From a virus (Duplodnaviria; Heunggongvirae; Uroviricota; Caudoviricetes), in IMG/VR virus record IMGVR_UViG_3300032731_000668, positions 64,001 through 128,000 of that record: a stretch of 64,000 nucleotides of DNA. One strand, given 5' to 3'. The translations under genes were made by a program, and so were the position numbers. Under the pieces are notes generated by a model. That model was not told the origin of the DNA. It saw only the letters and a list, made by a program, of their open reading frames with translations, and ran no database searches. This document shows, in pieces, positions 948 to 63,665 of this stretch (position 1 is its first letter; each line of letters opens with the position of its first letter).

Positions 948-1463
948 TTTATTAAATGATCTTGAATATAGATTTAATAAAGAAAATAAGATAAAGGAGA
1001 AAAATGATAGTTCAAACCAGTAAAAATCAAGCGGTTGAGATTGATCTCAATCTATCTGTTGCAGATTTAACTTTAGCAAATTCTGAGTCTCAGCAAATAA
1101 TTAAATTGGCATTAAGTGAAGCGGTACAAACTTTGTATTCTGATGATAGCGCGGATTGTGGAACTACGCTTTGGCAGATTGTCAACATTTTAGGAGGAGA
1201 AGAAGCCGTCAATATGCTAGAAAAGAATTGCGAAAAAGCATATGAAAAATATTGTACATAAAAATAAGATAAAATAGAAATTTTATTAGGAAATAGAAAA
1301 TGAATCAAGCCGAGATAGTATTAAAGGTTGTCGCTCTTGTCAAAGATTATGAAGACAAGAAAATAGACGAACAAAAATTACTTGCCGAAATTTGGAGATA
1401 TATGAGTTATCAAGGCTACCATGATGTTGATGAATTTTATAAATAGGATGAAATAAGATTTAT

Positions 1464-1868
1464 ATGCAAACAGTCCGTATCATAATAGCAGGCGGTCGCA
1501 AGTTTAGTGATTACGCAATGTTAAAAAGAACTATGGTAAAGTTCATTAAAAAATTACATGATCATATTAATTTTAATGATGTAGAAATTGTTTCGGGAGG
1601 TGCAAGAGGCACCGATCGATTAGGCGAAAGATTTGCAAAAGAACTTGGCCATAGGCTGAAAATTTTTCAAGCTGATTGGGATTTTTATGGGAAAAGTGCA
1701 GGTTATATTAGAAATGATGTTATGCTTAAGTATGCAGAAGAATCAGATCATTCTGTGTTAGTTGCTTTTTGGGATAGTAGATCCAAGGGTACTAAAAATA
1801 TGATTGATATTGCTAAAAAAAGTTTGGATAGTGTTGAAGTTATTTCATATAAAGACTTGACAAAATAA
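1464..1868 (+). CDS. SLOG-superfamily (DUF2493/YspA-like) protein
   Basis: Motifs IIAGGRKFSDY, IVSGGARGTDRLGE, ADWDFYGKSAGYIRN, AFWDSRSKGTKNMI. Confidence 0.85.
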   Translation: MQTVRIIIAGGRKFSDYAMLKRTMVKFIKKLHDHINFNDVEIVSGGARGTDRLGERFAKELGHRLKIFQADWDFYGKSAGYIRNDVMLKYAEESDHSVLVAFWDSRSKGTKNMIDIAKKSLDSVEVISYKDLTK

Positions 1869-1885
1869 AAATATTATGTTATAAT
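1857..1885 (+). promoter_or_regulatory. Sigma70/A promoter TTGACA-N17-TATAAT with TGn extension
   Basis: Exact consensus read from the sequence. Confidence 0.9.
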
Positions 1886-2228
1886 AAACCGATATTAAGG
1901 AGCAAATAAATCAATGAAGAAGATCAAAGAGTACGATGAGGTTGGTCGTGTCAATATCAATTGTGATTGTGGATGCAGTTCTCTTACAATTGAACAATGG
2001 CAGGGAGAAAATGGTCCAGAAGAAATCTTTATTGCGCATAAGATAAGTTCTTTTTATGCGCTACAGCAACCAGGTTGGACAAAATTTAAAGAGGCAATAA
2101 AAATTATATGGTGTATTCTGCGAGGGAAAGAATATTATTTTTATGAAATTGTTTTGACTACAAAAGATCAAATTTCCAAGTTTAAAAAGGCAGTCGCTTT
2201 ATTAGATGAAAATATTTTTGAGTATTAA

Positions 2229-2831
2229 ATGTCAAAATTAAATTGTGGTATTTATAAAATAGAGAATTTGATTGATGGAAAAATGTATATTGGAGGAAGC
2301 GCCAATTTGTATCAAAGAAAACATTCTCATTTTAGCAAACTAAAATATGGTTGTCATGAAAATTCTGTCTTACAAAAAACATATGTTTCAGACGGAAAAG
2401 AAAATTTTAAATTTATTATTTTATTATATTGTGAATGTTTTGAGTTAAAAAGATACGAACAGGCGTTGGTAAACAAACAAAGAAAATCTAAAATGCTATA
2501 CAATGTTCATCTAGACGATGTCAACAGTCCTTCGGGCGTCAAAAAATCAAGAGAAGAAATATTGGGAATGAGCGCAAGAAACAAGGGAAAAAACAATCCT
2601 TTCTATGGGAAAACACACATGGCAAAGACACGAAGAAAAATGTGTAAAAATCATGCAGATGTAAGTGGGAAAAATAATCCAAGAATTACATCAAAAGAAA
2701 TGGTCTTAAAAATTTTAAAACTATTTGACAAAAATATGCCTGTGAAAAATATTGCAGAACAATTGGATATTGGTCAGACCATTGTATATAGAGTAAAAAA
2801 TGGATTTTATGACGATATTTACGATTTATAG
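2229..2831 (+). CDS. GIY-YIG homing endonuclease with NUMOD3-like motifs and C-terminal HTH
   Basis: CGIYKIENL...MYIGGS, RYEQ, NPFYGKTH, C-terminus VKNGFYDDIYDL. Confidence 0.88.
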   Translation: MSKLNCGIYKIENLIDGKMYIGGSANLYQRKHSHFSKLKYGCHENSVLQKTYVSDGKENFKFIILLYCECFELKRYEQALVNKQRKSKMLYNVHLDDVNSPSGVKKSREEILGMSARNKGKNNPFYGKTHMAKTRRKMCKNHADVSGKNNPRITSKEMVLKILKLFDKNMPVKNIAEQLDIGQTIVYRVKNGFYDDIYDL

Positions 2832-3395
2832 CACATAAAAGGAATAATGATAAATAAAAATAATGTATTTGCTTTAGTGCACTTAAATTGGGAAGGGCTT
2901 CAAATTCTTGAGCTTGGCGATAAAAAATTTATTTTAGAGAAATACTTTTGGTGGAAAGAACAACTTGCGCAATATCAAAAAGAAGATTGTGATGATTTAT
3001 GCATTATGAGTTACGGGGATGAAAACACAGTAGAATGTGTTTGTAATAGATTTGATACGTCTGTATCAAAAGTAAAAGGATTGTAAAATGAAAACATTTA
3101 TTCTTATCGAAAAAGTTATGAACGGAACAGTTACAATGGACGTAATAACAATTCTTTTTCAAACAAAAAGTTTTGAAAAAGTTGTTAGCCACATTAAAAA
3201 TAGGCTAGAAAAATTAGAAGAAGTCGAAAACGTAAGTGTTATTTATGAAAATGATAACGACAAAATATTCTCGTATAATATTTGCGACCAAACTTTTCCG
3301 ATAGCTGGACACATAGAAAATAAAGAATCAAAGATTATCAATGTATAGCACAATAAAATGAATCTTTTATTTGATTATAAAAAAGGAGAAAGAAA

Positions 3396-3890: not shown

Positions 3891-3920
3891 TTTTGGGTGG
3901 CGCATAAGCGCCATCCAAAA
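3891..3920. terminator. Intrinsic terminator-like hairpin
   Basis: ttttgggtggcgc-ataa-gcgccatccaaaa with T/A tracts on both sides. Confidence 0.75.
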
Positions 3921-3949
3921 CCACATAAAATGAAGGTTTTATGAGGTTT
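3917..3949. repeat. Palindrome copy AAAACCACATAAAA-tgaagg-TTTTATGAGGTTT
   Basis: Direct read; follows a terminator hairpin and precedes an SD. Confidence 0.9.
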
Positions 3950-4154
3950 AAAAAAGGAGAAATATGAAAAAATCTAAGTTCAATTTGACAGAAAAAGAAG
4001 TTGATGAATTGCTAACAAGTAGACCTAGCATGTTTAATGCAGGAATGCTTTTAGACCTAAAAAGAATGTACGATTTATTTCATTATGTTTTAAATACGCT
4101 TGAAAAAGAACATGGAATAAAATTAGAGGTTGACGGAATAAATAATTAGCACCC

Positions 4155-4183
4155 TTGACAAAATAACAATTATATGGTATTAT
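4155..4183 (+). promoter_or_regulatory. Sigma70/A promoter driving the RNA unit and the 617-aa gene
   Basis: TTGACA-N17-TATTAT with TG at 4175-4176; predicted start about 4190. Confidence 0.9.
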
Positions 4184-4189
4184 TATGTT

Positions 4190-4246
4190 GGGCAAAAGAA
4201 GTTCCTTTACAAAATTTTCTATTAAAAAATAATTTACTTCTCGCCC
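4190..4246 (+). ncRNA. UUCCUU-bulge hairpin module, copy 1
   Basis: GGGC/GCCC stem, AAA-over-C loop, AGAAG/CUUCU helix, UUCCUU bulge, UA/UA pair. Confidence 0.8.
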
Positions 4247-4250
4247 TCGT

Positions 4251-4362: not shown

Positions 4363-4365
4363 ATA

Positions 4366-4424: not shown

Positions 4425-4443
4425 ATAAAAAACAGGAGATAAA

Positions 4444-6547: not shown

Positions 6548-8086
6548 AATTTTGGATTATACTCAATGTTTATTAATTAAATATGGCAATGTCATAACTA
6601 TTGGTAGACATATTAATCCATCTATTTATTTAGATTAGATAGAGTAATTAAAGGAGCTTAACATGAAAGATAGAATACAGAATGAACTTGAGAGTGCAAA
6701 TAAACAAGCCAATCTTTATAGAACCAAATGGCTTATAGCCCACAATACTTTGCACGCTCTTGTTCACGAAGAAAATCAAGAGATACAAAATAAGGATGGA
6801 GCAAAGAAATATTTTACGGAGTATCTGTGTGAATTGGAAAATGCGCCTAAGATTGCATTATTACCAGCTTAGAACATGTAAACAGATACATCGCATTTAT
6901 CTGCTTGTTCAAAGGCAGTACTATTACCACATGAGGAGATAAAAATGAAACCCAAAATCTCAATCGCACAGCAAATACTTTTACAAGCAGTCTTAATCGC
7001 AGTTGGAATATTCTTGGTAGTTAATAGTAGTCTTACAGGGGGTATAATAGGATTTGGCATGATTGGTATAGCGGCATTAGTTCCCATTATTATGCCAATG
7101 AATAAATCCAATTAATGCTCATACAATCTTGATAGAATACCAATACTACCTTTGATGGTCATTGGAATGATGGATGGATAGTTCAAGAAGTCTATAGTTC
7201 TGAAAGCGAGCAATATATTTTAAAGCACGAAAGAGATTGGGCAAAACAAAGAGAGGCAAGCGATATATGAAAAAATTTCCTGATTGGGAAGGCAAAGAGT
7301 ATGGCGGAGATTTTGCATGCGAAGATCCTACCTGTGAAGTTACTTGCGAATGTGGCCATGGATTAAACGAAAAAGGCATATTATGGGTTAGTGACTATGA
7401 GATAGTTCGTTGTCCTGAATGTGGACGTGGATATAAAACGGAGTTTGTTGTTTGGCAATTTGAGAAGGGTGAAACATAATATAATAAAACTATATGTAGT
7501 AACTATGTATCGATATGGAGATAGGCAAAAACATTCTTATATTTTGGGCGTTTGGGATACCGAAGAAGAAGCAAATTTATTTGCAAAAACAGAAGAATCC
7601 TACAGGGGATATCCTAAATATATAGCAGAAATATTACCTGTTGAATTAAATAAAGAACTTTATGGTAATGAAAAAATACAAACCTAATAAAATGAGGATA
7701 TTATGAATATCGCGGAAGTGAATACGATAAGAAAACTAAGTAGACAAGTATCTGAAAGTTCTGATGTGCGTACAATTGTCGCTGCAAGCGAACAATTAAT
7801 TGAGGCTTCGCGCAAAATTAGGGAAAGATACCAAGAAAAAGAAAATAAAAAAAATCTAAATGCACACAAAGCAATTCAAAAAATTAATGAAGTCATTGAT
7901 AATCGGTATATTCTTGGTGACTCAAAGAAATTAGATAAGATTATAGATATAGTTGGAAAATTAAATAAAGAAGAATAAATATATACAATAAAACGAGGAT
8001 TTTATGGGGTATATTTTATATACATATATTAACTCGTATGCGTTAATAACCAGATATTAAAAACACCATAATTGGAGTAAATAAAA

Positions 8087-9345: not shown

Positions 9346-9903
9346 GTGAAGAAACTATTGGTTTTTATATTGATGTTATGCATATTAATTGGATGTACCC
9401 CGAATACAGATATTGAAGTTGAAAATACGGCGTCAGAAACAGAATTATCTACGGCAGAATTGCCACGGTTTAAAGGTTTTGAATACCTTGAGGATGGTGG
9501 TTTGGCTATTTATACGCCGCCTTCGGCTGAAATCTTTTTTGTTATTGATGCCAATACGATATGGTTAGAGTCAGATCTTAGTGAACAAACACTTCTTGTG
9601 CACCGAGGAGAAGAAACGATAGATATGTTTTCTATTTCGTCTGGATTGCCGGCAACTCCAACTCCAACAGGATCATATAGGGTTTACAAAATGCAAACAG
9701 AGCATACTATGTGGTTAGATAACGTAGCGTATGATACGCCATGGATGATGTTTTTTCATCATGATTATGCAATTCATTCTGCTAATTGGCACGATAGTTT
9801 TGGCGAACCAATGAGTCTTGGTTGTATCAATATGTTTGTAGACGAAGCACGAGAAATTTATTATCAAGTTGAAATAGGAACACATATATATATTCATGAA
9901 TAA
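9346..9903 (+). CDS. L,D-transpeptidase (YkuD family) lipoprotein
   Basis: Lipobox LIGC; ISSGLPATPTPTGSY; catalytic AIHSANWH...SLGCINM. Confidence 0.88.
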   Translation: MKKLLVFILMLCILIGCTPNTDIEVENTASETELSTAELPRFKGFEYLEDGGLAIYTPPSAEIFFVIDANTIWLESDLSEQTLLVHRGEETIDMFSISSGLPATPTPTGSYRVYKMQTEHTMWLDNVAYDTPWMMFFHHDYAIHSANWHDSFGEPMSLGCINMFVDEAREIYYQVEIGTHIYIHE

Positions 9904-9935
9904 AACCAAATAAATGTATTATTTTATGTGGTTTT
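9902..9935. repeat. Palindrome copy AAAACCAAATAAAT-gtatta-TTTTATGTGGTTTT
   Basis: Direct read; overlaps the stop of the L,D-transpeptidase gene. Confidence 0.9.
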
Positions 9936-10206: not shown

Positions 10207-10698
10207 ATTATATATACATTACTCGAAAGCGATTACGTAAAAACACCAGAATGGTGTGCTAAAGATATGATCTCTTGGTTTAAGCCATCGGGTCTAGTTC
10301 TTGATCCATGCAGGGGAGAGAATAAAGTTTTTTATAATAATTTATCTAATGCCGATTGGTGCGAAATAGGAGAAGGGAAAGATTTTTTTGAATATGATAA
10401 AAAAGTAGATTGGATTATAGGCAATCCACCATATTCTATATTTAGTCATTGGATTAAATACTCTTATACTATTGCAGAAAATATTGTATATTTATTACCG
10501 ACATTTAAGATATTTAATGCCTTATCATTAATGCGACTATATAGAGATAAAGGTGGCATAAAACATATTAGATTTTATGATACAGGAAAAGCAATCGAAT
10601 GGAGTAGAAGTAGACCTATTGTTGCCTGTTGGTTTCAAAAAAAATATAAAGGCGACACCTCCTACTCCTACTATGGGGAAAATAACATAAAAGGATAA
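10207..10698 (+). CDS. Small N6-adenine DNA methyltransferase-like protein (start uncertain)
   Basis: VLDPCRG motif I and IIGNPPYS motif IV; open frame extends upstream of ATG 10267 through DYVKTPEW to a stop at 10201. Confidence 0.75.
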   Translation: MIYTLLESDYVKTPEWCAKDMISWFKPSGLVLDPCRGENKVFYNNLSNADWCEIGEGKDFFEYDKKVDWIIGNPPYSIFSHWIKYSYTIAENIVYLLPTFKIFNALSLMRLYRDKGGIKHIRFYDTGKAIEWSRSRPIVACWFQKKYKGDTSYSYYGENNIKG

Positions 10699-10721
10699 TT
10701 TTATGTGGTTTTGGAGAAAAT

Positions 10722-11465: not shown

Positions 11466-11835
11466 AGAGCAGTTAGACAAGGCATATAAAAAGGCATTAA
11501 TAGAATCGTTGGGTACAGATAAAGATAGGGTTATGATTGATTTGCGTTTAGATGAGGATATGCACTGCTATGGCGTATTTATTACTACGTGGAATACCGA
11601 TATAAACATTCTTTTTAATACAGCAAATTTTAAAAGAGATTTTAATAATGCACTTAGAGAAGCAACAAAATTAATGGACAATGGAGATTATGAAAAAAAG
11701 GGACATCCAATGTCTTATAATTCTTTTAGTTATGGAATATTTTTAAGTTCTAATTTTGATGATTATATGTCTAAAGAGGATAACCCTCTTGCTATAATCA
11801 GAGACGCTGGCGGAGAAATAGCAGGAGTAGAGTAA
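11452..11835 (+). CDS. Hypothetical protein
   Basis: ORF track; SD AAGGAG. Confidence 0.7.
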   Translation: MIENKEQLDKAYKKALIESLGTDKDRVMIDLRLDEDMHCYGVFITTWNTDINILFNTANFKRDFNNALREATKLMDNGDYEKKGHPMSYNSFSYGIFLSSNFDDYMSKEDNPLAIIRDAGGEIAGVE

Positions 11836-11874
11836 TACAATAAAAGGATAGTTTTATGTGGTTTAGGAGAAAAT

Positions 11875-12838: not shown

Positions 12839-12871
12839 AAAACCATATAAAAAGATAATTTTATATGGTTT
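12839..12871. repeat. Perfect palindrome copy with 5-nt spacer AAAACCATATAAAA-gataa-TTTTATATGGTTTT
   Basis: Direct read; just upstream of the -35 box at 12877. Confidence 0.9.
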
Positions 12872-12876
12872 TCTAC

Positions 12877-15487: not shown

Positions 15488-16811
15488 ATTGCATCCAAAT
15501 GTAAAAAAAATATTAAATATTTTATATAAAAATAATTTTAAAGGATATATAGTTGGAGGCGCGATCCGCGACGGCCTATTAAGAAGACGTCCTGCCGATT
15601 ATGATATCTGCACCAATGCCCTTCCTGAAGATGTTATAAGGATGTTCTCTAAATATACTGTTGTACCAACTGGGTTGAAACACGGAACTGTTTCTATAAT
15701 AATTGAAGGATGTACATATGAAGTTAGCACATTTAGATCAGACGGTGATTATTCGGATAATCGTCATCCAGATAGCGTAAACTTTATTGAAGACATAGAG
15801 GAAGATTTGTCACGCAGAGATTTTACCATCAATGCTATGGCGTACAATGAAAAAGAAGGGTTGATAGATCCTTATGGCGGACAGATTGACTTAAAAAATA
15901 AAATAATAAACTGCGTCGGCGATCCAAATCTAAGAATTCAAGAAGACGCTCTTAGAATGTTAAGGGCGATTAGGTTTGCTTCACAACTTGGATTTAAGAT
16001 TGGTGATGTTTGGTTTTCAATAAAAGAAAATAAGAATCTTATTTCTAATGTATCTGCAGAAAGAATTAGAGATGAATTAAATAAAATTTTGTTATCCGAT
16101 AATTCAGAAATGATTGCGAAGTTATATCTTGTAGGACTATTAGATATTATTCTTCCTGAATTATCTGCGTGTTTTGGCGTTGATCAAAAAAATAAAAATC
16201 ATATTTATGATGTGGGTGAACATATAATTAATACAATTAAATATACACCCAACAATTTAATTTTAAGATTGTCTGCAATGTTGCACGATATAGGAAAGCC
16301 CAGAACAATGACTGTTGGACCAGATGGCGTTGGGCATTTTTATAGACATGAAGATGTGTCATGCGATATGGCTAGAGAAATTTTACAAAGACTAAAGTAT
16401 GATAATCATACAATTGAAGAAGTTTGTTTGTTGGTAAGAACTCACATGAATTCTATTCCTGCCACTAAAAGAACCGTCAGAAGATTGCTAAGTCAGATTG
16501 GCAAAGAAAGAATGATGACTTGGTGTGCATTAAAAGATGCAGATGCGAAAGCACGAAAAGAATCTAAGTATCTTTCTATGAAAAGCAAAATAGATCGAGC
16601 CATTGAATTATATAATCAAGTTATAGCCGAAGACGAATGTTTTAGTTTAAAAGATCTTGCCATAAATGGCGATGACTTAAAAAATATTGGCTATGAAGAA
16701 GGCAAAGAAATTGGGAAAGTTTTAAAATCTTGTTTAAAAATGGTTATAGAAGATGCCGAGAAAAATAATAAAGAATATTTATTAGAGTATGTAAACCAGA
16801 TAAAACGCTGA
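15468..16811 (+). CDS. cca: CCA-adding tRNA nucleotidyltransferase with HD domain
   Basis: VGGAIRD..DYDI, DLSRRDFTINAMA, EDALRMLRAIRF, VSAERIRDEL, LHDIGKP. Confidence 0.93.
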   Translation: MINYLIKLHPNVKKILNILYKNNFKGYIVGGAIRDGLLRRRPADYDICTNALPEDVIRMFSKYTVVPTGLKHGTVSIIIEGCTYEVSTFRSDGDYSDNRHPDSVNFIEDIEEDLSRRDFTINAMAYNEKEGLIDPYGGQIDLKNKIINCVGDPNLRIQEDALRMLRAIRFASQLGFKIGDVWFSIKENKNLISNVSAERIRDELNKILLSDNSEMIAKLYLVGLLDIILPELSACFGVDQKNKNHIYDVGEHIINTIKYTPNNLILRLSAMLHDIGKPRTMTVGPDGVGHFYRHEDVSCDMAREILQRLKYDNHTIEEVCLLVRTHMNSIPATKRTVRRLLSQIGKERMMTWCALKDADAKARKESKYLSMKSKIDRAIELYNQVIAEDECFSLKDLAINGDDLKNIGYEEGKEIGKVLKSCLKMVIEDAEKNNKEYLLEYVNQIKR

Positions 16812-16825
16812 TTTTATGTGGTTTT
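16793..16825. repeat. Palindrome copy AAACCAGATAAAA-cgctga-TTTTATGTGGTTTT
   Basis: CCA-enzyme ORF runs through the left arm and stops in the spacer; promoter follows. Confidence 0.9.
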
Positions 16826-16828: not shown

Positions 16829-16857
16829 TTGACAAATAAGGAATAATGTGATACTAT
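16829..16857 (+). promoter_or_regulatory. Sigma70/A promoter of the MTase-nuclease pair
   Basis: TTGACA-N17-TACTAT with TG. Confidence 0.8.
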
Positions 16858-17822: not shown

Positions 17823-18904
17823 TGGAAATAAACTTAAAAGAAATACCAATCAGAGAAGTTGCTAAAGGTTATTCAAACAATCAAATTGAAGGCGTTTTTG
17901 GCTATGGTGGCAAGCTCAATATTCGACCAAAATATCAACGAGAGTTTGTTTATAAAGATAAACAAAGAGATGCTGTTGTTGAAACAATAAGAGAAGATTT
18001 CCCTTTAAATGTAATGTATTGGGCTAAAAATGAAGACGGAACATTTGGAGTAATGGATGGACAACAACGAACTATAAGCGTTTGTGAATATATAGATGGT
18101 AAATTCGCTCTCAACTATCAATATTTTCATAATCTTGAAAAGAAAGAGCAAGAACAAATTCTTGACTATAAACTTATGGTTTATTTCTGCGAAGGAGAAC
18201 CAAAAGAGAAATTAGAATGGTTCAAAATCATAAATATCGCTGGAGAGAAATTGTTTGATCAAGAATTAAGAAATGCAGTCTATACAGGAACATGGCTATC
18301 TAGCGCGAAACGACATTTTAGTAAACCTAACTGTGCTGCAAAAGATATAGGGAAAGATTATTTAATTGGTTCGGCAATTCGCCAAAGTTATTTAGAAACA
18401 GCGATTGATTGGATAAGCGACGGCAATATTAAAGAATATATGGCAACCAACCAGCATAAACCAAATGCTAACGAATTGTGGCTCTATTTTCAAAGCGTAA
18501 TTAATTGGATAAAGATGGTATTCCCTGAATATCGTAAAGAAATGAAGGGTGTGCCTTATGGCTTCTTATATAATGAATTCAAAGACAATGAATTTGATTC
18601 AAATAAAATAGAAGAAGAAATAAGCAAATTAATGCGAGATGAAGATGTAACAAAAAAGAGTGGTATTTACTCGTATGTTTTAACTCAAAAAGAGAAATAC
18701 CTAAATATTCGTGCTTTTAGTGATAGTCAAAAACGAGAAACATACGAAAGACAAAAAGGAACTTGTATTAAGTGCGGCAAACATTTTGAATTAGATGAAA
18801 TGGAAGCTGATCATATTGATCCTTGGAATAAAGGCGGAAAAACAATTGCAAAAAATTGCCAAATGTTATGTAAAGAAGACAATCGAAGAAAATCTGGAAA
18901 ATAA
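17822..18904 (+). CDS. DUF262 (GmrS-like) plus C-terminal HNH nuclease; likely restriction partner
   Basis: YQREFVY, DGQQRT, F.IIN..G..L; C-terminal CIKC..MEADHI.PW.KGGKT..NCQMLC..DN. Confidence 0.88.
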   Translation: MEINLKEIPIREVAKGYSNNQIEGVFGYGGKLNIRPKYQREFVYKDKQRDAVVETIREDFPLNVMYWAKNEDGTFGVMDGQQRTISVCEYIDGKFALNYQYFHNLEKKEQEQILDYKLMVYFCEGEPKEKLEWFKIINIAGEKLFDQELRNAVYTGTWLSSAKRHFSKPNCAAKDIGKDYLIGSAIRQSYLETAIDWISDGNIKEYMATNQHKPNANELWLYFQSVINWIKMVFPEYRKEMKGVPYGFLYNEFKDNEFDSNKIEEEISKLMRDEDVTKKSGIYSYVLTQKEKYLNIRAFSDSQKRETYERQKGTCIKCGKHFELDEMEADHIDPWNKGGKTIAKNCQMLCKEDNRRKSGK

Positions 18905-19217
18905 AAACCACATAAAATGTTGATTTTATAGGAGATTATAATGGATGAATTATTTGTAGTGCGACTTTATGATGGGTTTGATAACTTGTGGATGGATGTT
19001 TCAGAGCCAGTCAATAAAGTTGAAGCAGAAAAAATTTTGAATGAAAAAACGAAGGATGGAACAAAAAATACTAAATATGCAGACATTGATTATTATTGTA
19101 TTTTTCCCGCCGATACAAAGATGATGTTTTCGGTACCAAGATAATATATAATAAAGTATATATTATGGCATATCTTTGGGCTTAATATAACAAAAGGTAT
19201 ATATTATCGAGAGACAA

Positions 19218-19300: not shown

Positions 19301-19301
19301 C

Positions 19302-19934: not shown

Positions 19935-20347
19935 GCAAAAACCACATAAAACAATTATTTTATTGTATTTGAGAGATTGCTTAAAAGGAGATGAGATGAG
20001 CACACTACTATGTTTATTAGGAATTCATAAATGGGAATATTATTATACCGATCTGTTTATGCCAACCGATAAGTATTGTGTGAGGTGTTTAAAAACACAA
20101 CACATAAGAGATTCTACAAATTTAGAAAGACAGATTTGTAAGGATCGTATATCATGATTGACAAATCAAAACAAATATATTCATGGCATTGTTTCGATGA
20201 TATAGATGTAAATTGTTCTTGTGGAAAGGCTACGCACGCCGGTGATTATGATGATGAATCGGATTCATATCAATTTCAATGTGAAAATTGTGGTCAGCGT
20301 TGGGTTGTAATTGTTCAAGTTATTCCAGTCAAAGAAAATGATTAATT

Positions 20348-20728: not shown

Positions 20729-21178
20729 GTTTATATATGATCTCAAACAAGAGGTACAAATAAAAAATCTTAATATAAAAGGTATTGTTGTTGGATATTA
20801 TTGTGGAGATACTGGCGTTCAATATCAGGTTGCATACTTTTTAAATGGAGATAGAACCGTAACTTATTTATATCCAGAAGAAATATGTAAACTTAATGGG
20901 GAAGAAAAAGCAGGATTTTTGAAATGAAAGATATTATGATAAGAAAGATGAATAAAGAAGAAGATTTAAGACCTATCGGGACTATATTTGATATTGACAT
21001 ACCTCCCAATATTTGTTCGACAAGAATGAACAACGGGACTGTTATAACATATAAAGTTGTCGATCATATTGTCGTTTATCCTTACGGCGAATATGGCCCA
21101 GCGAAATGGGTTGAAGAAATAAAAACAATAGAGATTGTTGAAACACAATAAAATTGCTATTTTATGAGGCTTTAAAAA

Positions 21179-21895
21179 ATGAAAAATAATTTAGAAGGAA
21201 AGATTTTTGGTAGTTTGTTGGTAATTAGAAAGACTGATATACCGCCAAATTATAAAGCTAAAAGAAATTCATTTTGGTTGTGCAAATGTCAAAAGTGTGG
21301 AGAAGAAAAAATTAGGACAGGTAATAAATTAAGAAATATAAAAACATGTTCTTGTGAATATAAAGGTCTAAATTCAAAATATAAAAAATTTAATAAATAC
21401 GATTTGTCAGGAAAATATGGAGTTGGATATACTCATGACAATCTTCGGTTTTACTTCGATTTAGAAGACTATGATAAAATAAAAAATTACTCTTGGACTT
21501 TATCTGGCAACGGCTATCATCTCTTTACAAATGACTATATTACTCGTAAAAGAATAATGTTGCATCGTTTAGTTTATGGTTTAACAAACGGCCAGATAGG
21601 ATTTATAAATAAAAATTGTTTAGATGTAAGAAAGGCAAATCTAAGAATCGGAAAACATAAGGAACATCTTAGAAATAGCAAAATATATAAAAACAATAAA
21701 AGCGGAATTATCGGTGTTCATTGGTGCAATAGAGACGAGAAATGGATTGCCCAAATTATGGTCGATTATAAATCTATATATCTTGGTGGCTATGAAAATT
21801 TTGAAGAAGCGGTAAAAATCAGGCTTGAGGGAGAAAAAAAATATTTTGGCAAATTTGCACCTCAGCGACATCTATATAAAAAATATGGAATATAA
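21179..21895 (+). CDS. HNH/AP2-domain homing endonuclease
   Basis: FYFDLEDYDKIK..W; MLHRLV; LDVRKANLR; NKSGIIGVHW..W.AQI..IYLG.Y..FEEA...R. Confidence 0.87.
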   Translation: MKNNLEGKIFGSLLVIRKTDIPPNYKAKRNSFWLCKCQKCGEEKIRTGNKLRNIKTCSCEYKGLNSKYKKFNKYDLSGKYGVGYTHDNLRFYFDLEDYDKIKNYSWTLSGNGYHLFTNDYITRKRIMLHRLVYGLTNGQIGFINKNCLDVRKANLRIGKHKEHLRNSKIYKNNKSGIIGVHWCNRDEKWIAQIMVDYKSIYLGGYENFEEAVKIRLEGEKKYFGKFAPQRHLYKKYGI

Positions 21896-21926
21896 TAAAA
21901 TCCGCCTTTTATTATAGGAGAAAATA

Positions 21927-22274
21927 ATGAAAATGTCAAAAGAAGAAATTTTAAAAATGCCTGCAGGCAGAGAGATGGATGCATTGGTGGCTGAACATAT
22001 ATTTAAAACACCATTTCAAAAACCTGGTCATGGCCCATGTTGTACTTGTCAAACTTGTGGTTGGAGTTTTGACGACTGTCAATGTGGTTATAGTGAAAGT
22101 CGCGATATGGCATGGGAAATACTAGAAAAATTTGCATATTATGAACTTAAAAAACTATTTTTAAGATATAATGTTTATATTGAAAATAATGATAATATTA
22201 GAAGTGGACATTCGCAAGAAAATACGGCACCTCTTGCTATCTGCAAAGCGGCGCTACTTGCACAAATACAATAA
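21927..22274 (+). CDS. Phage ABA-sandwich-like domain protein
   Basis: MPAGREMDALVAE..YS...AW.I.EK..APLAICKAALLA. Confidence 0.7.
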   Translation: MKMSKEEILKMPAGREMDALVAEHIFKTPFQKPGHGPCCTCQTCGWSFDDCQCGYSESRDMAWEILEKFAYYELKKLFLRYNVYIENNDNIRSGHSQENTAPLAICKAALLAQIQ

Positions 22275-22305
22275 AATCCACATTTTATCGTAAAGGGAGA
22301 AGCAA

Positions 22306-26351: not shown

Positions 26352-27688
26352 TATAATAATACCGTTTTTATGCGGAGGAATATAAAAATGAAAGATGAAT
26401 ATAGAAAAAAAGATAAATATAGAAAACTTAGTAATTATCTACAAAAAAGATTTGATAAAATATCTAATGGAAAAGTAAATAGGTTCAAGTTTTATCAATT
26501 AGTATTCTTAGATATGATTCTTGATAAAATTGAAGGGAATAAATAGTGAAAGAATATACAGAAACAACTGAATATTGGACAGTAGAAAGTAAATATATCG
26601 ATCCCGTAGAGCCTTTTTATTGGGGCACAACTGGCGACATTTATAATAAAGAAATCGCCAATTCCACTTATAATGAATTAAAAAGTAAATATGCAATTAC
26701 TCGACTGATTCATCATATAACAAACAGCAAAATTATAAGAGAACATATTAATGAATAAATATTACTATCACATGATTATTGAATTAATATTATATTATGG
26801 AATTGGATTACAACCACATGATGTAATAGATAAATACATTGAAGAATACATGAAGGAAATGAATTTAGATGGCAAATCCCTTGTAAAAGAAAAGAATAGA
26901 TTGCAGAAGGAAATAAAATGAAACAAAATATGAAAAAAGACAGAGAGTTAGACAGAATAGATAAATCAATCTTAATGGTGTTATATAAGAATGACCCTAT
27001 AGGAATGACGAAAGAGGAAATTACAGAATCAATTGATGCAGAAGGCTTATTGTTTATGTCAGATGAAGCGTTTGAGAAATATCGTACAGATTTAATTGCT
27101 TGGAAAAAAGCATAGACATAACTATACCAAATAAAACTGTTAGTTTATGTGGTTTAGAAAAGAGAGAATATGAAGCAAATTGATCCAGTTTTAAATTTAG
27201 GATGTAATATATGGAAGACAGAGAAATGTTTTTGTTGCGGTGGAGAGTATGAAAACCCATGTTGGTATATTTTTGAAGATATAGGAAACAAAACATTCCA
27301 AGTTCCTATTTGCAATAAATGCTCTAATGAAAGAGATAAAAACTTTTCTGGATTAAAAGAAACAGCCATATAATAAAAACACTATTTTGTCATAAGGAGA
27401 AAGATGGGAACTTTTGATAGTTATGGAGATAAAGGAATACAAATAAAAGCAGGAGAATGCATGATGTGCCATTATGAAGTAGGTGATGTTTGCGATTTAA
27501 AAGACGGCATTTATTTAGGCTACAATGGGGCAATAGTTGTTCTTGATGGAAAATTTATCGCTGAATTTCCTCATATTTTTACAAAATATGGAAGCATAAT
27601 AGATAACCATGACATTATAGATCAATATAATCCAGTTGTTCAGGTTATGAATGATTTAAATAAAAAAGAATAAAAGTACTATTTTGCC

Positions 27689-28234
27689 ATGAAAAATAAA
27701 TATATAATCAAAAATAATATTGTAAAAATATTCTTGCCTCGTCGAAATAATAAGGCAAGTATAGAAACATTAATTGACACAGAAGATTTTGATAAAGTCA
27801 ACAAGTACACCGGAACTTTTGTTTCTGGATATAACAGGCAAAAGGAAGAGGTCTATGCCCAGATATGTCTATATTTAGGAATGATTGATGGAAGTCCTAA
27901 ATATAAAGTTTTAAGGCTACATAGAATTATAATGGATTGTAATAATCGTAGTCTTCATGTAGATCATAAGAATAGAGATTCTTTAGACAATAGAAAATCA
28001 AATTTACGTATTGTTAGCAATGCAGACAATTTAAAAAACAGAGAATCAAAAAATTCAAACAATAAAACGGGTTATCGCAATGTTTGTTTTTATAAGGGGT
28101 TATATCTTGTTCAACTACAAGTTGGCGGAAAAAATAAGTTGCTTGGAAGATTTAAGAATGTGAATAAAGCAAATATATTTGCTAAAGAAATGCGTAAAAA
28201 ATATTACAAAGAATTTAAAGGAAAAACAACATAG
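27689..28234 (+). CDS. HNH/AP2-domain homing endonuclease
   Basis: LHRIIM..VDHKNRDSLDNRKSNLR; NNKTGYRNV; flanked by palindromes on both sides. Confidence 0.9.
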   Translation: MKNKYIIKNNIVKIFLPRRNNKASIETLIDTEDFDKVNKYTGTFVSGYNRQKEEVYAQICLYLGMIDGSPKYKVLRLHRIIMDCNNRSLHVDHKNRDSLDNRKSNLRIVSNADNLKNRESKNSNNKTGYRNVCFYKGLYLVQLQVGGKNKLLGRFKNVNKANIFAKEMRKKYYKEFKGKTT

Positions 28235-28455
28235 AATCATCACTTTATTATAAAAGGAGCGATATGATAAAACAAGCGACGGTATATTTTAAAAATGGGC
28301 TTAAAGATTGGGTTGATCCTTATGAAAATTATTATATAGAAAAAAATAAAATATTTATAGAATCTTTTTATACATACGATGTTGAAGTCAATGAAATACA
28401 AGAATCGGGCGATGGAGAAATTATATGGGAGAATAAAAAATAATAAATTTTATCC

Positions 28456-30022: not shown

Positions 30023-30061
30023 ATAGAAAGAAATAAAAATCAAATAAAATGCAGATTTTAT

Positions 30062-30133
30062 TGGCGGTTCTTCTAAATGGAAAGAAATCGGGCTTTGATC
30101 CCGACAATAGTGGTTCAAATCCACTACTGCCAT
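30062..30133 (+). tRNA. tRNA-Gln(TTG), no encoded CCA
   Basis: U1-A72 acceptor TGGCGGT/ACTGCCA, loop CT-TTG-AT, T arm AGTGG-TTCAAAT-CCACT. Confidence 0.9.
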
Positions 30134-30413: not shown

Positions 30414-30464
30414 AGTGAAACACAATAAAATCGTTATTTTATTATAATATGAAAGGAAAAATAT

Positions 30465-40630: not shown

Positions 40631-40685
40631 AATAGAAACAAAACAACATAAAACAGTAATTTTATCATGTTTAAGGAGAAAATAA

Positions 40686-41077: not shown

Positions 41078-44000
41078 ATGAAAATTAGTGAATTACTTAA
41101 AATTTTAAGGGCAAAGAAAAAAGCGTATGGAGATCTTGAAATCAGAGTTTATGATCCTGATTGGCGGGCATATTATAATATTGATGTAAAATATATTGAA
41201 AAAACAAATGATGAAGGCGATGATTTTCTTTGTTTAAATACCCCTTCAAATTAATATAATAAAAGGCAAAACAAATGATTGCAGATAAGCGATTGAATAA
41301 AATTAGAAAACTAGTTAACATTATCTATACGGCAAGAAGTGTAATAGAAATAACTGTTGCCGCAAATGAACTTGTTAAACTATCCAAGGAGATAAGGCAT
41401 GAAAAACGCATTAGATTATATTCTGGCGGATAATGTTAATATGGCTTTTCTTTGGAATGAAAAACAGATGGTTGTTATAAATGCAGCAAGAAAAGAATTA
41501 AAAACCCTTCGCCGACAGAATAAAGATTTTATTGATGATGCAAAGGCGTTGACAAATTCTATTGCGTCCTTAAAGGATTTTGTAAATCTAAGTGGGCTTA
41601 CATTCAAGAAAAAAGATGGTTCAGGTATTGGTAGTGGAGAAGCGTTGGTGTTCGGACAGTTTATAACTAATATAGATGAGGCAATAGAACAACACAACGC
41701 CCTCATGCAGAAATATAATAAAACCACATAAAATAGTTCTTTTATGTGGTTTAATAAAAAAGGAAAAATGAAACAATTAATGTTATTAGAAGTTCGTGGA
41801 AGAACCAAGCCGTGGGATTTTATTGTCGAAGGCGATAGTGACTATCTGGAAGAATGGAGAGAAGACGGTCTTGATATCAATCCGCTAGTCAATGTAATTC
41901 CTGAATGGGTAGTAGACATAGGACTTTTACGACCATGGTGTTTTTTTCAAGATCTATTAAATAGTAAATGGGCTGGAAGAATTTTGATAGGTTGCATTAT
42001 TGTTGGAATTATAATATCGGTTGTATAATAAAATCGGTATGATAAAATGATTCTTTTATGCGGTTCAAGAAAACATAAGGAAAAGTAAAATGAAAATTAA
42101 AAATAGACAAGGCGTGTGGATCAATACTAGAACTGATTGGGGATATGAAACCAATGCAGATTTTGTGCTTGCATTATTGGAGCATGGGGAAATGACAAGG
42201 GATGTTTTATCTGAAATTTTGAATCTAGATAGTTTACCAGACGACTTGAATAAAAAAATTCGAAAAGTTTTGGACAGAAATAATTTTTAGAGATCTCACA
42301 ATAAAAGGAGAAAAATGAGCAAAATTGAAGAACTGCGTAAGATTACAGAAGAAGTAAGGGAGAAAAAAAATGCAGATTGGGAATCTATTCGTGTAAAGTT
42401 TTTTAATGGAAAGTTGTTCGAAAGAATACTGTCTGATTTTGAAGAAGAGGCATTACTGGTGGCTCAAAAGGGTGAGCATATTGCTTTTATCAGGATGGAT
42501 ACATATTTTCCTCGTGGCGTTATTCCGGACAATGGTGAAAGTCTGCTTGACTATGCTATGACAAGGACTGGCTATTTTTATTCGTCCGATAAAACAAACG
42601 ATGGTGGGCGTACATTGGGATTTTCGTGGTAATATTGAAACAACATAAAATGATGTTTTTATGTGGTTTAGAGGAAAAATGAGAAAACAAGAGCTGTTAG
42701 ACGAAGCATATAAGAAAGAAACAAGAGAGACATTTTCTACGAAAAAAGATAGACGAAATCTTTGGCTAAAACATGGTGTCGTACATGGCGATCTTCTTGT
42801 TGTACAGAGGATTTACTATTGGTTACGTTGGAAACTTACAGGACAGAAACTAAATTTATGGAAAATGACACCACACTATGTTGTGTTGAATAAAGATTTT
42901 TTAAAGGATATGTGGTTTGAAGATATAAAGGAGATTTAAAATGAAATGGATTTCAAAGCGCCCTATTTATGATGACAGTAGATATATAAAAAAATTTTTA
43001 CTCTTCCCCATAAAAGTAAAAAGAGAAGTATGTTGGTTAGAAACAGCATATATTTTCCAAGTATGGAATCATGGATGGAAAAATAAATTTTTTATTACAG
43101 AGGAATATTACAATGATTTTGACCAAAAAAGGAAAGACAAATAAAATGCATCTTTTATGTGGAAAAAGGAAAAAAATAAATGAAAACAATTGACATGAAT
43201 TGGAGAGGGTATTCATTCTCTGCCAACGACGACAAGGATAGATCAACGCATGACAAAATACTTATTAGAGTAGATAAATATACTTATGCTGAATTTACAA
43301 GAGATGCTATATTAGAGTTGATAAGGGAACTGGCTGAATACATTGAAGATGACGATGCCGCTGAAAATGACATATTACAAACTCAACGGACTAAATTAGA
43401 ATTAGGGGCAACGGCGGCAGAATTTGTGGTAGGACCAATCGCAGAAGAATTGGCGTTGTGTATGAGATATTTCGAGAAGAATATCCCGACAGAAGAAACA
43501 GAATTCCCTCCAATTAAAAACTTCTTTCTACATCCATTAATAGAGGACATAGAAAATGATATAATGGCTCATGCGATTGAATATCCTGACCACGGTTTTA
43601 AAATAAAAGTTGAATGGATTCCTTCAGCTAAGAAGAAAACAAAATGATAAAAATATATTCAGGAGCATTATCAAGATACTTTGAAAAATTTACATTAAAT
43701 AAAGACGACCCATTTTACATATTTTTTCCTTGTAAAAAAACATGGCGTGGAATAGAGGTAATTCCAACAGAATGTAGCAAATGGGCAAATGAGATTGGTT
43801 CTTATAGAATGATATTTGATGAAAACAATCTCAAATATAATTCTTTTGCGATTACGAAGGAAGGTATTGAAATACAAATTTCTAAAAACAGATTAATAGA
43901 AAGCCAAGAACAATTAGTCAACGAAATAAGCCAAGGATTTTTGGTGCCTTTAAAAACCAAATAAAATACATATTTTATGTGAAAAGGAATATAAAAATGG

Positions 44001-45080
44001 AATATGAAATAGTAATGGAAGAACGGATGACTTTAAACAGTGCAGAAATCGATGCATTTATGTCGCTTGTAGGCGAAACGACTAGAAAGCAAAAAATGGG
44101 TTTTAGAGTCTCTGAATCAGACTCTAATTTATTGGATGAAGTTTATTTTGAGGTGTGTGATTTGCGCAGACAGAATAACATAGAAACCACATAGAATGAT
44201 AAGAAAAATATATCTAAGATTGCTTTTATGGGGTTTTAGAATCGGCGCATTTTTTCATTGGGAGTTTGCAGAAGACCAGTGCGAGGATTTAGAACTTGCT
44301 CTTAACGATGAGTTTATTGCTGGTATGAGAAAAATAATTAAAGCTGTAGAATCTACGGATTTTGATATTGGTAAGGTAAAAAAGGTTGATAAGTTATAGT
44401 AAAAAACCACATAAAATGAGGGTTTTATCATAAAAGGAAAAAATATGGCGGCAATAGCATACGATAATAATGGAAATATAAGGATACCAAAAAAAGAAAA
44501 TAAAAAGGAGAAAATAATGAGTGCACTAAGTGATTATGTGAACGTAAAAAATTACAAAATAGAAATAGATGGCAATACTATGGGAGATTCAATTTTGAGC
44601 GGAGAAGTAAGTATTGGATTTGATTGGGCAGAAGAAAATAAAAAAGTTTTTACCAAGGAGATATTAAAAAGCATGAAAAACAATAATGAATTTACTTTTA
44701 TGAACAGGATAGGAGAGTTTGCAACATATATTCAAAATGAAACAAATTACGAAAATCTAGTACCAAAAAGAGTTATCTATAATGGGCGCACCACTATTTG
44801 CAAATGGAAAGATGGTACAAAAACAGTTGTCAAAGCAACTAAAGATGATAATCCAACACATGAGCACGGCGTAGCCATGGCAGTTATTCGAAAACTATTT
44901 CCAAGCCGACAAGAATTTCTTAGGTTGGTGGATAGTGGATATGATGTGATTGAAGAGACAAAGAAAAGAGAGATAGAAAAAGCAGAACGAAAAGAAATTG
45001 CGAGACTTGAAAAAATAAGAATAAAAGATGAAAAAGAACGTGCAAAAGCAAAACTTGGCGAGTTTATCGTAAAGGAATAA
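41078..45080 (+). other. Array of about 12 small hypothetical ORFs separated by palindromes
   Basis: ORF track plus palindromes at 41728, 42042, 42645, 43141, 43961, 44411. Confidence 0.8.
41720..41752. repeat. Near-perfect palindrome copy AAAACCACATAAAA-tagttc-TTTTATGTGGTTT
   Basis: Upstream ORF stop TAA (41729-41731) lies in the left arm. Confidence 0.92.
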
Positions 45081-52460: not shown

Positions 52461-52572
52461 TGATTACCTCCTATTTATTTTTATATTTTCCCTAGTTATG
52501 CAAAACACATAGATAGGAGTCGTTATTCATTTAAAACCACATAAAACAAACATTTTATTGGGTTCTTAATAT

Positions 52573-59620: not shown

Positions 59621-59659
59621 ACTGTATTAAAAACCACATAAAATACGAATTTTATTATG

Positions 59660-59908
59660 TTATTTTACCTTTAACTGTTTCTCAACTTCTTTAGCAATCT
59701 TCTCGCCCAATGTTTCCACTGGCTCAACAGGTGTTGGTTCTATTGATATCTCATAGTCCAATGGTGTTTTCTGTTTTTTGTTCCACTCAAGAAATTTACG
59801 AAAGTCCCTGTTTAGTGGTTCAAACGGAATAGACATATTACCTTTTTGAATTGACACTGGTTCGCCTGTAAAATCATAGTTTATTTTATACATGTTATAG
59901 CTCCGCAT
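59660..59908 (-). CDS. Small tail-fibre-associated protein
   Basis: SIPFEP.NRDF..FLEW pattern; follows the fibre gene. Confidence 0.6.
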   Translation of the reverse strand: MRSYNMYKINYDFTGEPVSIQKGNMSIPFEPLNRDFRKFLEWNKKQKTPLDYEISIEPTPVEPVETLGEKIAKEVEKQLKVK

Positions 59909-61907: not shown

Positions 61908-61963
61908 ACTTAGTCCTCCTTATCGTTATATTTAAAATTAATTTATAAATGCATTTGTTCTTA

Positions 61964-62761
61964 CTATCCGCCAACAGCTCTTGCAAAACTATAAGTAAAT
62001 TCAACAAAAGATATTGCACTTGTTATATGTAATGAATTTAAACCAGGTAAAAATCTTAACCAATTTTTATTGAAATATGAAAGACGATAAAGACCAGTTG
62101 TTGAAGAAATTATTTGAAGGCTATTATCTACAGTAATACCTTCATCTGCACTTAGTCCTGTAAAAATAAATTCTCTACCATCATCAGTTGTATTTGTAAA
62201 TGTAAAATCTGCGCCCAGAGAATTGAGTGTAAATTCAATTGTTGGATAGAGATAATTGTTGTTGTCACTATCATTATAAAATGTAAAATCGAAGTCTTGT
62301 ACTGCATCAGGCGAAAAATCATAAGAAAAAGATTGATCTTCTGTATGACCCCACGGAGCGTCACAAACTGCCCTTAAATCCATCCCTACGGGTTTATTAC
62401 CAACATAAATAGTCTCAGAACCAGTGAATATTACATTGAAATATATGCCCTGCATATCGTCTTGACATATGATTAATTTTTTATAACCAGATTTACCAAG
62501 AAGCCATTTAGACATATTCCGTATATCTATAGACGATACAAAATTGTTGTAGCCTATTTTAAAAGTGAATTCTAGCGGGATGCTCTGACTGTTCCCAAAA
62601 TGATAGGGGACAGTTCGACGATATGGCCACTTTTGATTAATTGTTGTTGCGTTACCCGAAGAAGACCTACTTGTCCCGGAGGTACGCTCAAAATTAATTA
62701 TTTGTACGCTGTAATTTTCTGAGGGAATTCCTCCGTAAATGAAGTTCGCGCCAAAAAACAT
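61964..62761 (-). CDS. Distal tail protein (Dit-like)
   Basis: Follows the tape measure; WLLGK.GYKKL; F.CDAPW; WLRFLPG.N.L. Confidence 0.8.
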   Translation of the reverse strand: MFFGANFIYGGIPSENYSVQIINFERTSGTSRSSSGNATTINQKWPYRRTVPYHFGNSQSIPLEFTFKIGYNNFVSSIDIRNMSKWLLGKSGYKKLIICQDDMQGIYFNVIFTGSETIYVGNKPVGMDLRAVCDAPWGHTEDQSFSYDFSPDAVQDFDFTFYNDSDNNNYLYPTIEFTLNSLGADFTFTNTTDDGREFIFTGLSADEGITVDNSLQIISSTTGLYRLSYFNKNWLRFLPGLNSLHITSAISFVEFTYSFARAVGG

Positions 62762-63520
62762 TTAGTCCTCCTTTGATAAATCATAAATATCATCATATTC
62801 ATGATTTTTTACTCTATAAACCGTACGAACACTAACATTAAGAGTTTTTGATATATTTATTGCCGAAATATTTTTGTCAAGCATACACAAAATATCTATA
62901 ACTATTTCTTTTTTTATAGATTTAGACCGACGCATTTTTAAAATAGATTCTGCTGTATGTTGTCTATTATAAAAAGGAGCATCTTTTCCCCTAACGCCCC
63001 ACATAGGATTATTTTTACCTTTGAGATCTCTAGTCTTCCAATTTCTTTTTGGTAAATTATCATAAATATTATCATATCCGCCCTTTTTAATCTTGCCAAT
63101 AGTATTCTTGCAAATACCCGTTTTCTTAGAAATCTCTTTCTGTGACATTTCTTTTGGCATTTTCAGTATTTTTAATACCATCTCTTCTTTTATAAGTTTA
63201 GGTTGACTTTTACATATTTTTGTTCTAGAAATCGATGGGTGATGATACCCGTAAGTACCTTCTCCTCCGCAACAAATATTATACCCAATTTTACGATCTG
63301 TTGAACTATATTTTTTTATCCAATATATTTCTCTCTCACATAAATAATCATGGTCAGTTATTCCATCTTCTAATGTTTCTCTAGTAAAATTTTTTTTACC
63401 ATATTTTTTAATAGCTTTTTTTAAATTTTTTCCTGAACCCAAATAAGATTTTTGATTCCCACAATACTTTCCTATATAAATCATTCCATTGATTTTATTT
63501 GTTGTCTTATAAATAATCAT
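62762..63520 (-). CDS. GIY-YIG homing endonuclease
   Basis: MIIYKTTNKING.IYIGK; Y.GSG; REIYWI; GYNI..GGEG; two HTH units. Confidence 0.9.
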   Translation of the reverse strand: MIIYKTTNKINGMIYIGKYCGNQKSYLGSGKNLKKAIKKYGKKNFTRETLEDGITDHDYLCEREIYWIKKYSSTDRKIGYNICCGGEGTYGYHHPSISRTKICKSQPKLIKEEMVLKILKMPKEMSQKEISKKTGICKNTIGKIKKGGYDNIYDNLPKRNWKTRDLKGKNNPMWGVRGKDAPFYNRQHTAESILKMRRSKSIKKEIVIDILCMLDKNISAINISKTLNVSVRTVYRVKNHEYDDIYDLSKED

Positions 63521-63547
63521 CTATTCCTCCATATCTCCATAAACTTT

Positions 63548-63611
63548 AAAAATGGGAAATAGTGGAGTTCTACTTATCAGTTTAAGAGCGACCTAAACCT
63601 ATCCCATTTTT
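63548..63611 (-). ncRNA. Three-way-junction RNA leader, copy 2
   Basis: Minus strand AAAAAUGGGA-UA-GGUUUAG..UUAAACU-GAUA-AGUAG.AACUCCA.CUAUU-UCCCAUUUUU. Confidence 0.8.
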
Positions 63612-63665
63612 ATCATACTTAATATTCTTTTTAAAACCACATAAAACTATAATTTTATTTGGTTT

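Follow-up and report, generated by a model that had tools for sequence, protein, structure and literature searches.

We analyzed a 64,000-nucleotide stretch of a tailed phage genome (Caudoviricetes), hereafter the window, which comprises bases 64001-128000 of the IMG/VR record IMGVR_UViG_3300032731_000668 (168,212 bp, estimated complete), and in particular a short palindrome that recurs at its gene junctions. The genome is transcribed rightward up to ~115.2 kb, through small early genes, a 20-kb glycan operon, and genes for replication and nucleotide metabolism. The leftward genes beyond that point encode an endolysin, tail and head proteins, and a YonO-like RNA polymerase. Judged by DNA polymerase III alpha (38-41% identity), the nearest cultured relatives are Geobacillus virus E3, Tsamsa-like Bacillus siphoviruses, and Psychrobacillus phage Perkons. 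Copies of the palindrome, which consists of two inverted halves separated by six bases, are clustered in the early arm; the late arm contains just three strong ones, and a weight-matrix scan found none in the glycan operon and replication core.

The palindrome was searched for over the whole genome with an iterated weight matrix, in which hits of at least 14 bits were considered strong and hits of at least 8 bits were listed. Consensus searches were controlled with 100 dinucleotide shuffles, and the weight matrix with five Markov-simulated genomes. With up to three mismatches, the consensus matched 9-14 times in the window versus 0 in the 100 shuffles, and the matrix recovered 54 genome copies at or above 14 bits versus 0 in the simulated genomes. 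The window contains 27 strong and 5 weak copies, in agreement with the approximately 31 counted in a preliminary description made from the sequence of the window. The placement at gene junctions noted there extends to the complete genome, where 61 of the 65 hits at or above 8 bits are intergenic or overlap a gene end only; intergenic DNA makes up 8.5% of the genome, and the motif is not equally frequent inside open reading frames. A scan of metagenomes supplied 120 motif-bearing contigs with together 241 further copies, and 57 of these contigs have 67-92% nucleotide identity to the phage. (Contigs of relatives are numbered with an L, as in L024, L044, L104, etc., and G000 denotes the full phage genome.) The invariant part of the element is ATAAAA-N6-TTTTAT, found in 54/54 genome copies and in 220/220 unique copies of relatives, and ATAAAA/TTTTAT is the top palindromic word pair in each motif-bearing genome. 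Exact cores number 55 at the N6 spacing versus 0-3 at each other spacing from N2 to N11 (1.4 expected), and neither N5 nor N7 is enriched. The outer CCAC/GTGG arms are conserved only in part and are negatively correlated between halves. The loxP- or dif-like shape first described thus stands with respect to the arm-spacer-arm arrangement and its exact 6-nt spacer, but not with respect to 14-bp arms, which are an imperfect, lineage-specific extension of the core. No two of the 54 genome spacers are alike, where ~2 identical pairs would be expected, a difference that is not significant. A tendency of neighboring sites to share similar spacers was also considered and rejected as not significant (p = 0.075), one duplicated endonuclease cluster apart.

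The copies in the window are given here with their weight-matrix scores; their strand is entered as '.' throughout. The first strong copy (1261..1294, 27.5 bits, spacer TAGAAA) abuts the upstream stop and lies 6 nt before the next start. It is followed by copies at 3345..3378 (25.8 bits, spacer TGAATC), 3917..3950 (39.8 bits, spacer TGAAGG, with a GC hairpin before it and a fold of -11.0 kcal/mol), 7980..8013 (28.3 bits, spacer CGAGGA), and 9902..9935 (31.6 bits, spacer GTATTA). Two copies each precede an HNH-type homing endonuclease paralogue: that at 10679..10712 (35.2 bits), whose spacer GGATAA contains the upstream stop (10698), and that at 11832..11865 (29.2 bits, spacer GGATAG). The copy at 12839..12872 (28.8 bits) has fully paired arms, folds at -12.2 kcal/mol, and is followed by a sigma-A-type promoter. 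A promoter also follows the copy at 16792..16825 (37.1 bits), whose spacer CGCTGA contains the stop of the CCA-adding enzyme (16811) and is kept in L044 and L056. Perfect left arms are found at 18904..18937 (30.6 bits), where a ribosome-binding site takes the place of the right arm, at 19938..19971 (33.8 bits), and at 44403..44436 (31.3 bits). Stop codons fall within the left arm at 21140..21173 (31.8 bits, stop 21151, spacer TTGCTA kept in L096), 22263..22296 (21.3 bits, stop 22274, followed by a homing endonuclease gene), 28223..28256 (20.7 bits, stop 28234, two core mismatches), 41720..41753 (38.2 bits, stop 41731), 43133..43166 (26.9 bits, stop 43144), 43953..43986 (32.4 bits, stop 43964), and in the weak copy at 27662..27695 (11.0 bits, stop 27673). 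All seven of these stops, with the TAA at motif positions 10-12, had been reported previously and were confirmed, as were the two stops inside spacers. The copy at 41720..41753 is called the best copy and has perfect 13-bp arms; in its place, the L104 orthologue has a sigma-A promoter. Further strong copies lie at 27123..27156 (26.9 bits) and 42637..42670 (35.1 bits). At 30036..30069 (25.1 bits), the palindrome abuts tRNA-Gln (30062-30133), the first gene of a tRNA cluster, while that at 30417..30450 (27.9 bits) begins 3 nt past the -10 of a consensus sigma-A promoter (30385-30413), and that at 40640..40673 (34.5 bits) has a sigma-A promoter (40602-40630) just upstream. A doubtful copy at 44204..44237 (14.9 bits) has an imperfect left core and lies inside a called open reading frame. 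The late-operon copies of the preliminary description proved real: 52533..52566 (33.1 bits) is separated by 7 nt from the preceding stop of a tail gene and by 73 nt from the endolysin gene that follows (minus strand), 59630..59663 (33.3 bits) lies ~105 nt upstream of a GIY-YIG gene (58623-59525, minus strand), and 63633..63666 (34.0 bits) lies at the stop of a 1272-aa tail gene. The remaining weak copies are found at 311..344 (8.3 bits), 7679..7712 (8.2 bits), 21887..21920 (9.8 bits), and 42034..42067 (9.6 bits).

The palindrome is closely fitted between genes. The upstream gene ends on the TAA of the left half in 57 of 203 oriented copies, and the distance from the right end of the palindrome to the next start codon has a median of 15 nt. 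Promoters adjoin 8 of the 54 genome copies, of which six lie directly upstream of a -35 and two start 3-6 nt past a -10. The remaining palindromes have no promoter nearby, none overlaps a -35 to -10 core, and one copy, as described above, abuts a tRNA cluster. Since copies may lie on either side of a sigma-A promoter or have none, and one precedes a tRNA cluster, a DNA site fits better than a translation element or terminator. The presence of the site is labile, in that several orthologous genes have a palindrome in one phage and lack it in another, and at three orthologous genes the palindrome in one phage is matched by a consensus sigma-A promoter in the other. Near-consensus sigma-A promoters (TTGACAAAA..TATGnTATAAT) number ~25 and occupy intergenic gaps of both arms of the genome. 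Those in the window include, besides the two already located, sequences at 1857-1885, 4155-4183, 16829-16857, 28456-28484, 29087-29115, and 36308-36336. Five sigma-A promoters lie in the late arm, and therefore late genes may also use host-type promoters.

Beyond the aquatic relatives, exact cores are found 20 times in Tsamsa, 17 times in Geobacillus E3, 13 times in SPbeta, and 9 times in Perkons, with 0.1-0.8 expected. Its numbers do not exceed chance in a faecal phage or in PMBT69, SPO1, 0305phi8-36, SP-10, and Bastille. In Tsamsa, E3, Perkons, and SPbeta, the copies lie 0-25 nt before ribosome-binding sites, and those of Tsamsa often directly follow a terminator hairpin. The outer CCAC/GTGG arms are not common to these four phages, and the flanks vary by lineage, which is what co-evolution with a phage protein would lead one to expect. 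In Perkons (MT325768), two versions of the symmetric half-site coexist, ATAAAA at 9 sites and ATGAAA at 8, which could reflect relaxed specificity or two paralogous binders. The phages that share the 18-bp dyad, namely SPbeta, Tsamsa, Geobacillus E3, Perkons, and the uncultured aquatic clade, have barely alignable proteins. Scans of IMG/VR found many copies of the long palindrome form in no other record, and a lysogen and host search in representative bacterial genomes returned single matches only, at chance level. The palindrome is not mentioned in the Tsamsa paper, in the MrpR/SPbeta paper, or in the results of a full-text literature search.

Several properties of the palindrome distinguish a DNA site from an RNA element. 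Outer-arm pairing does not exceed chance in the 54 genome copies, and in the 220 unique copies of relatives it is significantly below chance (z down to -5). This negative correlation between halves fits selection on total binding energy or affinity, not on a helix. Folding the 54 copies yields a mean of -4.2 kcal/mol, with 7 copies at -8 kcal/mol or better and 25 weaker than -3 kcal/mol, and sense and antisense folds are equal. Arm mismatches of the C-A type are commoner than U-G. Variation in the core is strand-symmetric as well, since A>G (25) and T>C (26) are balanced when the 124 single-mismatch cores are given the direction of transcription, and the ATGAAA variant is equally frequent in either half. 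Base frequencies in one arm mirror those in the other, and the dyad runs into the spacer, where T occupies position 15 in 64% and A occupies position 20 in 61% of transcription-oriented copies. There is no orientation bias, and perfect arms are equally common on either side. A scan of the window against Rfam found that only tRNAs reach the gathering score, and no family matches the palindrome. Because the arms are partial, the hairpins are mostly unstable, and the variants are strand-symmetric, the palindrome is a two-fold symmetric DNA-level site and not a terminator. Taken with the comparisons between phages, the data show an intergenic DNA-level dyad that is conserved across the SPbeta supergroup and belongs functionally to the gene just downstream.

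Because this dyad acts at the DNA level, has halves that do not vary and a constant spacing, differs in its flanks between lineages, and is linked to the gene that follows it, we tentatively read the palindrome as a gene-proximal operator for a putative dimeric regulator. The palindrome usually moves together with that gene, as in SPbeta and SPbetaL4, whose common sequence at both yotJ and mtbP starts with the palindrome. A distributed operator role, which the preliminary description had raised beside recombination, is the best-fitting reading of the element. A two-fold symmetric, dimeric, sequence-specific protein would bind double-stranded DNA through the half-site ATRAAA, with the halves exactly six bases apart, and in the lineage of this phage the half-site would be extended outward to ~14 bp. 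The bound protein would occupy the gap from the stop codon of one gene to the ribosome-binding site of the next, or lie beside a sigma-A promoter, and in this way may act as a distributed operator or roadblock that controls expression of the gene or transcription unit that follows. Such a binder would be a putative regulator and probably phage-encoded.

Several observations weigh against the operator reading. No binder was identified among the candidates tried: there was no match to sigma-70 region 2, and matches to Cro/CI-type helix-turn-helix domains fell inside homing endonucleases only. A phylogenetic profile did not inform on the HU-like YonN as a candidate binder, since all eleven phages tested, with and without the motif, carry an HU gene and genes so universal do not discriminate. 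Almost no small proteins are detectably common to the motif-bearing phages. Profiling of shared proteins was discarded as a route to the binder, as only a DNA ligase matches the presence and absence of the motif, and the other shared proteins (polymerase, tail genes, YomM recombinase) also occur in the motif-less PMBT69. The spacers present a further difficulty. Orthologous sites keep their own spacers (e.g. TATAGA, CGCTGA, CAAGAA, TTGCTA, GAAAGA, TGATAG), with ~2 differences in ~42 positions over seven orthologous groups, and third codon positions are ~67% identical, a comparison that is dominated by two groups and serves as a rough neutral rate only. This site-by-site conservation of the spacer is not predicted by a simple operator model. 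In a controlled comparison made for each junction, synteny is broken at 85% of palindrome-junction comparisons versus 56-68% elsewhere (p 0.001-0.01), and the 12-bp centre-to-centre distance, with half-sites abutting the spacer, is also typical of tyrosine-recombinase sites.

These last observations are those that speak for a role in recombination, in which the palindromes would be core sites for a tyrosine recombinase, either phage-encoded or host Xer. The private six-base spacer would restrict exchange to the matching site in a co-infecting relative and promote module swaps. In the SPbeta supergroup, the palindromes would then be fixed, individually addressed hinges, where a recombinase swaps only same-spacer sites and modules are exchanged without flanking homology. 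As the spacer of each site is conserved above the synonymous rate and breaks of synteny are more frequent at palindromes, this role keeps a place in our assessment, at a low probability. The spacers of the 54 genome copies all differ, and in 40 copy pairs that are homologous on one side only, the spacer is mostly kept. The motif is absent from the Lactococcus phage PMBT69, and Lactococcus uses XerS rather than XerC/D. The genome also encodes two tyrosine recombinases that carry the catalytic R, (K), H-x-x-R, H/W, and Y residues. The preliminary description was correct that no recombinase is visible in the window, since both lie outside it, but the genome as a whole does not lack one. The first is a XerA/XerC-like protein of 305 aa with all catalytic residues and its own sigma-A promoter (genome 54174-55091). 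The second, of 339 aa, is the orthologue of SPbeta YomM (genome 131525-132544, equivalent to window positions 67525-68544), and its gene is embedded in the structural (tail) operon. The YomM-type recombinase is conserved in Tsamsa, E3, and Perkons, but it is also present in the motif-less PMBT69. The absence of identical spacers, as stated above, is not significant against the ~2 pairs expected. Relative to the phage genome, ends of homology coincide with palindromes in 16 of 73 junction cases, roughly the proportion of junctions at which a palindrome occurs; of the breakpoint enrichment that had been anticipated, the excess of synteny breaks was found, but an excess of homology ends was not. 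At both yotJ and mtbP, the homology shared by SPbeta and SPbetaL4 starts exactly with the upstream edge of the palindrome and the spacer is kept, so that these breakpoints lie at the outer edge of the palindrome and not in the spacer, and in two 2-kb SPbeta stretches most breakpoints fall at palindrome-less junctions. The integron-like cassette system proposed from the window is not supported, and the hinge role is disfavored by the same observations: at least 10 gene indels between the phage and its relatives have no palindrome at either end, insertions beside a palindrome leave a single copy without duplication (those in relatives fall upstream), and one deletion used a 5-6-bp direct repeat rather than the palindrome. 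If the palindromes were hinges after all, a site-directed mechanism of module exchange would be added to phage biology.

Slightly less probable again is a promoter-type element, in which the left half and first spacer base (TAAAAT) would act as a -10-like sequence for the host RNA polymerase, possibly phage-modified, and give each small gene its own start signal. This would account for the exchange of palindrome and consensus sigma-A promoter at three orthologous genes, for the movement of the palindrome along with its downstream gene, and for the copy abutting the tRNA cluster, for which no further promoter is apparent. Of the Tsamsa copies, half come after a GC-rich terminator hairpin and have a ribosome-binding site immediately behind them, and several read TGnTAAAAT. 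However, the T needed at the end of the -10 is missing in 36% of copies, the positions T15 and A20 and the perfect arms are without orientation bias, and the invariant inverted second half is left unexplained. There is no -35 element, the TG extension is absent in the lineage of this phage, copies occur directly upstream and downstream of good sigma-A promoters, and no sigma factor was found. A promoter for YonO was considered separately and rejected, as the published YonO start region has no palindrome.

We give only a slim chance to an RNA-level leader element, that is, a weak A-U hairpin or protein-bound RNA site that would tune downstream translation, processing, or stability. The position of the copies is favorable, with the median of 15 nt to the start codon in this phage and the 0-25 nt to the ribosome-binding site in Tsamsa, E3, Perkons, and SPbeta. 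The arms, however, do not covary, about half of the copies have negligible folds, and a six-pair A-U helix would probably melt at the growth temperature of Geobacillus. The excess of C-A over U-G mismatches, the strand symmetry of core variants, and the lack of a matching Rfam family argue against it as well, and copies are also found in untranscribed or divergent SPbeta gaps and before tRNA genes. Intrinsic terminators or attenuators that punctuate the early operons are the least probable reading: the six copies directly upstream of a sigma-A -35 fold above average (~-8 kcal/mol), late-arm copies lie directly after stop codons with U tracts, and one SPbeta copy carries a stem-loop annotation, but an RNA hairpin or terminator was rejected on folding energies (-8 kcal/mol in only 7/54 copies), absent covariation, and strand symmetry, and moreover conservation falls on the A-T top of the putative stem rather than on its G-C base, two copies lie just past promoters, and the outer stem is wholly absent from the copies of relatives.

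The phage has ~10 GIY-YIG/NUMOD3/helix-turn-helix and at least six HNH-AP2 homing-endonuclease-like genes. Two GIY-YIG genes in the tail operon (58623-59525 and 62762-63520, minus strand) lie ~100 nt downstream of palindromes and are absent from L024 and L043; further homing-endonuclease-like genes are found at 34489-35460, at 45239-46090, and elsewhere. A homing-endonuclease-borne origin of the palindrome was rejected, as the palindrome is retained at the same junction of the tail gene in relatives that lack the GIY-YIG genes; there, the counterpart of 63633..63666 directly precedes the tail gene. Between the late-arm palindromes and the GIY-YIG genes lies a common sequence of ~65 nt (..GGGATAGGTT..; 59555-59620 and 63548-63611, minus strand), which looks like a component of the endonuclease unit. 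At 39509-39539, where the DNA polymerase gene ends, L031, L097, and L104 lose homology at one point ~30 nt before the polymerase stop, and the phage has the start of an HNH-AP2 endonuclease gene there. The DNA polymerase III alpha gene of L097 contains a 1-kb insertion (4073-5120), which may be an intein or an intron. LAGLIDADG inteins are found in RtcB (23450-25516) and in a B12-type ribonucleotide reductase (47843-50791); L066 is without the reductase intein, and L110 is without the RtcB gene altogether. Outside the window, a 907-aa protein (G000 161135-163858) has 28% identity over 429 residues to SPbeta YonO, a single-chain RNA polymerase, and an HU-family gene (G000 158987-159292) lies near it, mirroring the yonN-yonO pair of SPbeta. 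A 112-nt tRNA at window 4251-4362, identified by Rfam score and not called by ARAGORN, may be interrupted or atypical.

Among known systems, the palindrome resembles in shape Xer dif, plasmid pdif, and other tyrosine-recombinase cores, which have inverted arms around a 6-bp centre with adjoining conserved A/T. A large number of sites per replicon, placed at module borders and often with one weaker arm, is a further resemblance. The palindrome shares with these the inverted, mirror-symmetric arms and the exact N6 spacing, but its sequence is not known to resemble Bacillus dif, neither recombinase has a link to it, most indels are unflanked, and insertions are without site duplication. The PeSLs of T4-like phages, which pair a consensus promoter with a stable G-C stem-loop terminator and recombine by homology (PMC2839356, PMC4122927), are likewise conserved intergenic repeats among small accessory early genes at module borders; the palindromes, too, mark such borders and flank variable accessory genes, and some combine with a sigma-A promoter. 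They differ in that few palindromes adjoin a promoter (8/54) or fold stably (7/54), and the conserved unit here is an 18-bp A-T dyad. The stoperators of cluster A mycobacteriophages, recognized by the L5 gp71-type immunity repressor, are found in dozens of copies in intergenic gaps, and are thought to stop or block transcription beyond promoter-bound operators (PMC9283540). They resemble the palindrome as many copies of one short site in short intergenic gaps. Stoperators are, however, asymmetric 13-bp, monomer-bound, and orientation-dependent sites of an immunity repressor, whereas the palindrome is a dyad without orientation bias or a named binder, and its tie to lysogeny is putative at most. 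The SPbeta repeated element (SPBRE) is bound by MrpR/YopR (PMC10516654) and is, like the palindrome, a repeated regulatory element of early-arm intergenic regions in the same phage supergroup. From ten published MrpR targets, we derived the SPBRE as ..ACAAAnAATATGTATA.. overlapping a sigma-A promoter. It is a separate sequence, and the 13 palindromes of SPbeta lie mostly away from MrpR peaks; SPBRE overlaps early promoters, whereas only 8/54 palindromes adjoin a sigma-A promoter and none overlaps its core. An MrpR operator was therefore rejected, as both elements coexist in SPbeta and no MrpR homologue was detected in the phage, where BLASTP of the 305-aa recombinase against YopR gave E 0.29 and neither recombinase is one. 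With this, the repressor of recombinase fold that the preliminary description had drawn from MrpR is not upheld. If the palindrome is an operator, it would constitute a second genome-wide control layer beside MrpR/SPBRE, and in SPbeta, which serves as a genetic model, direct tests of the binder and of its role are feasible.

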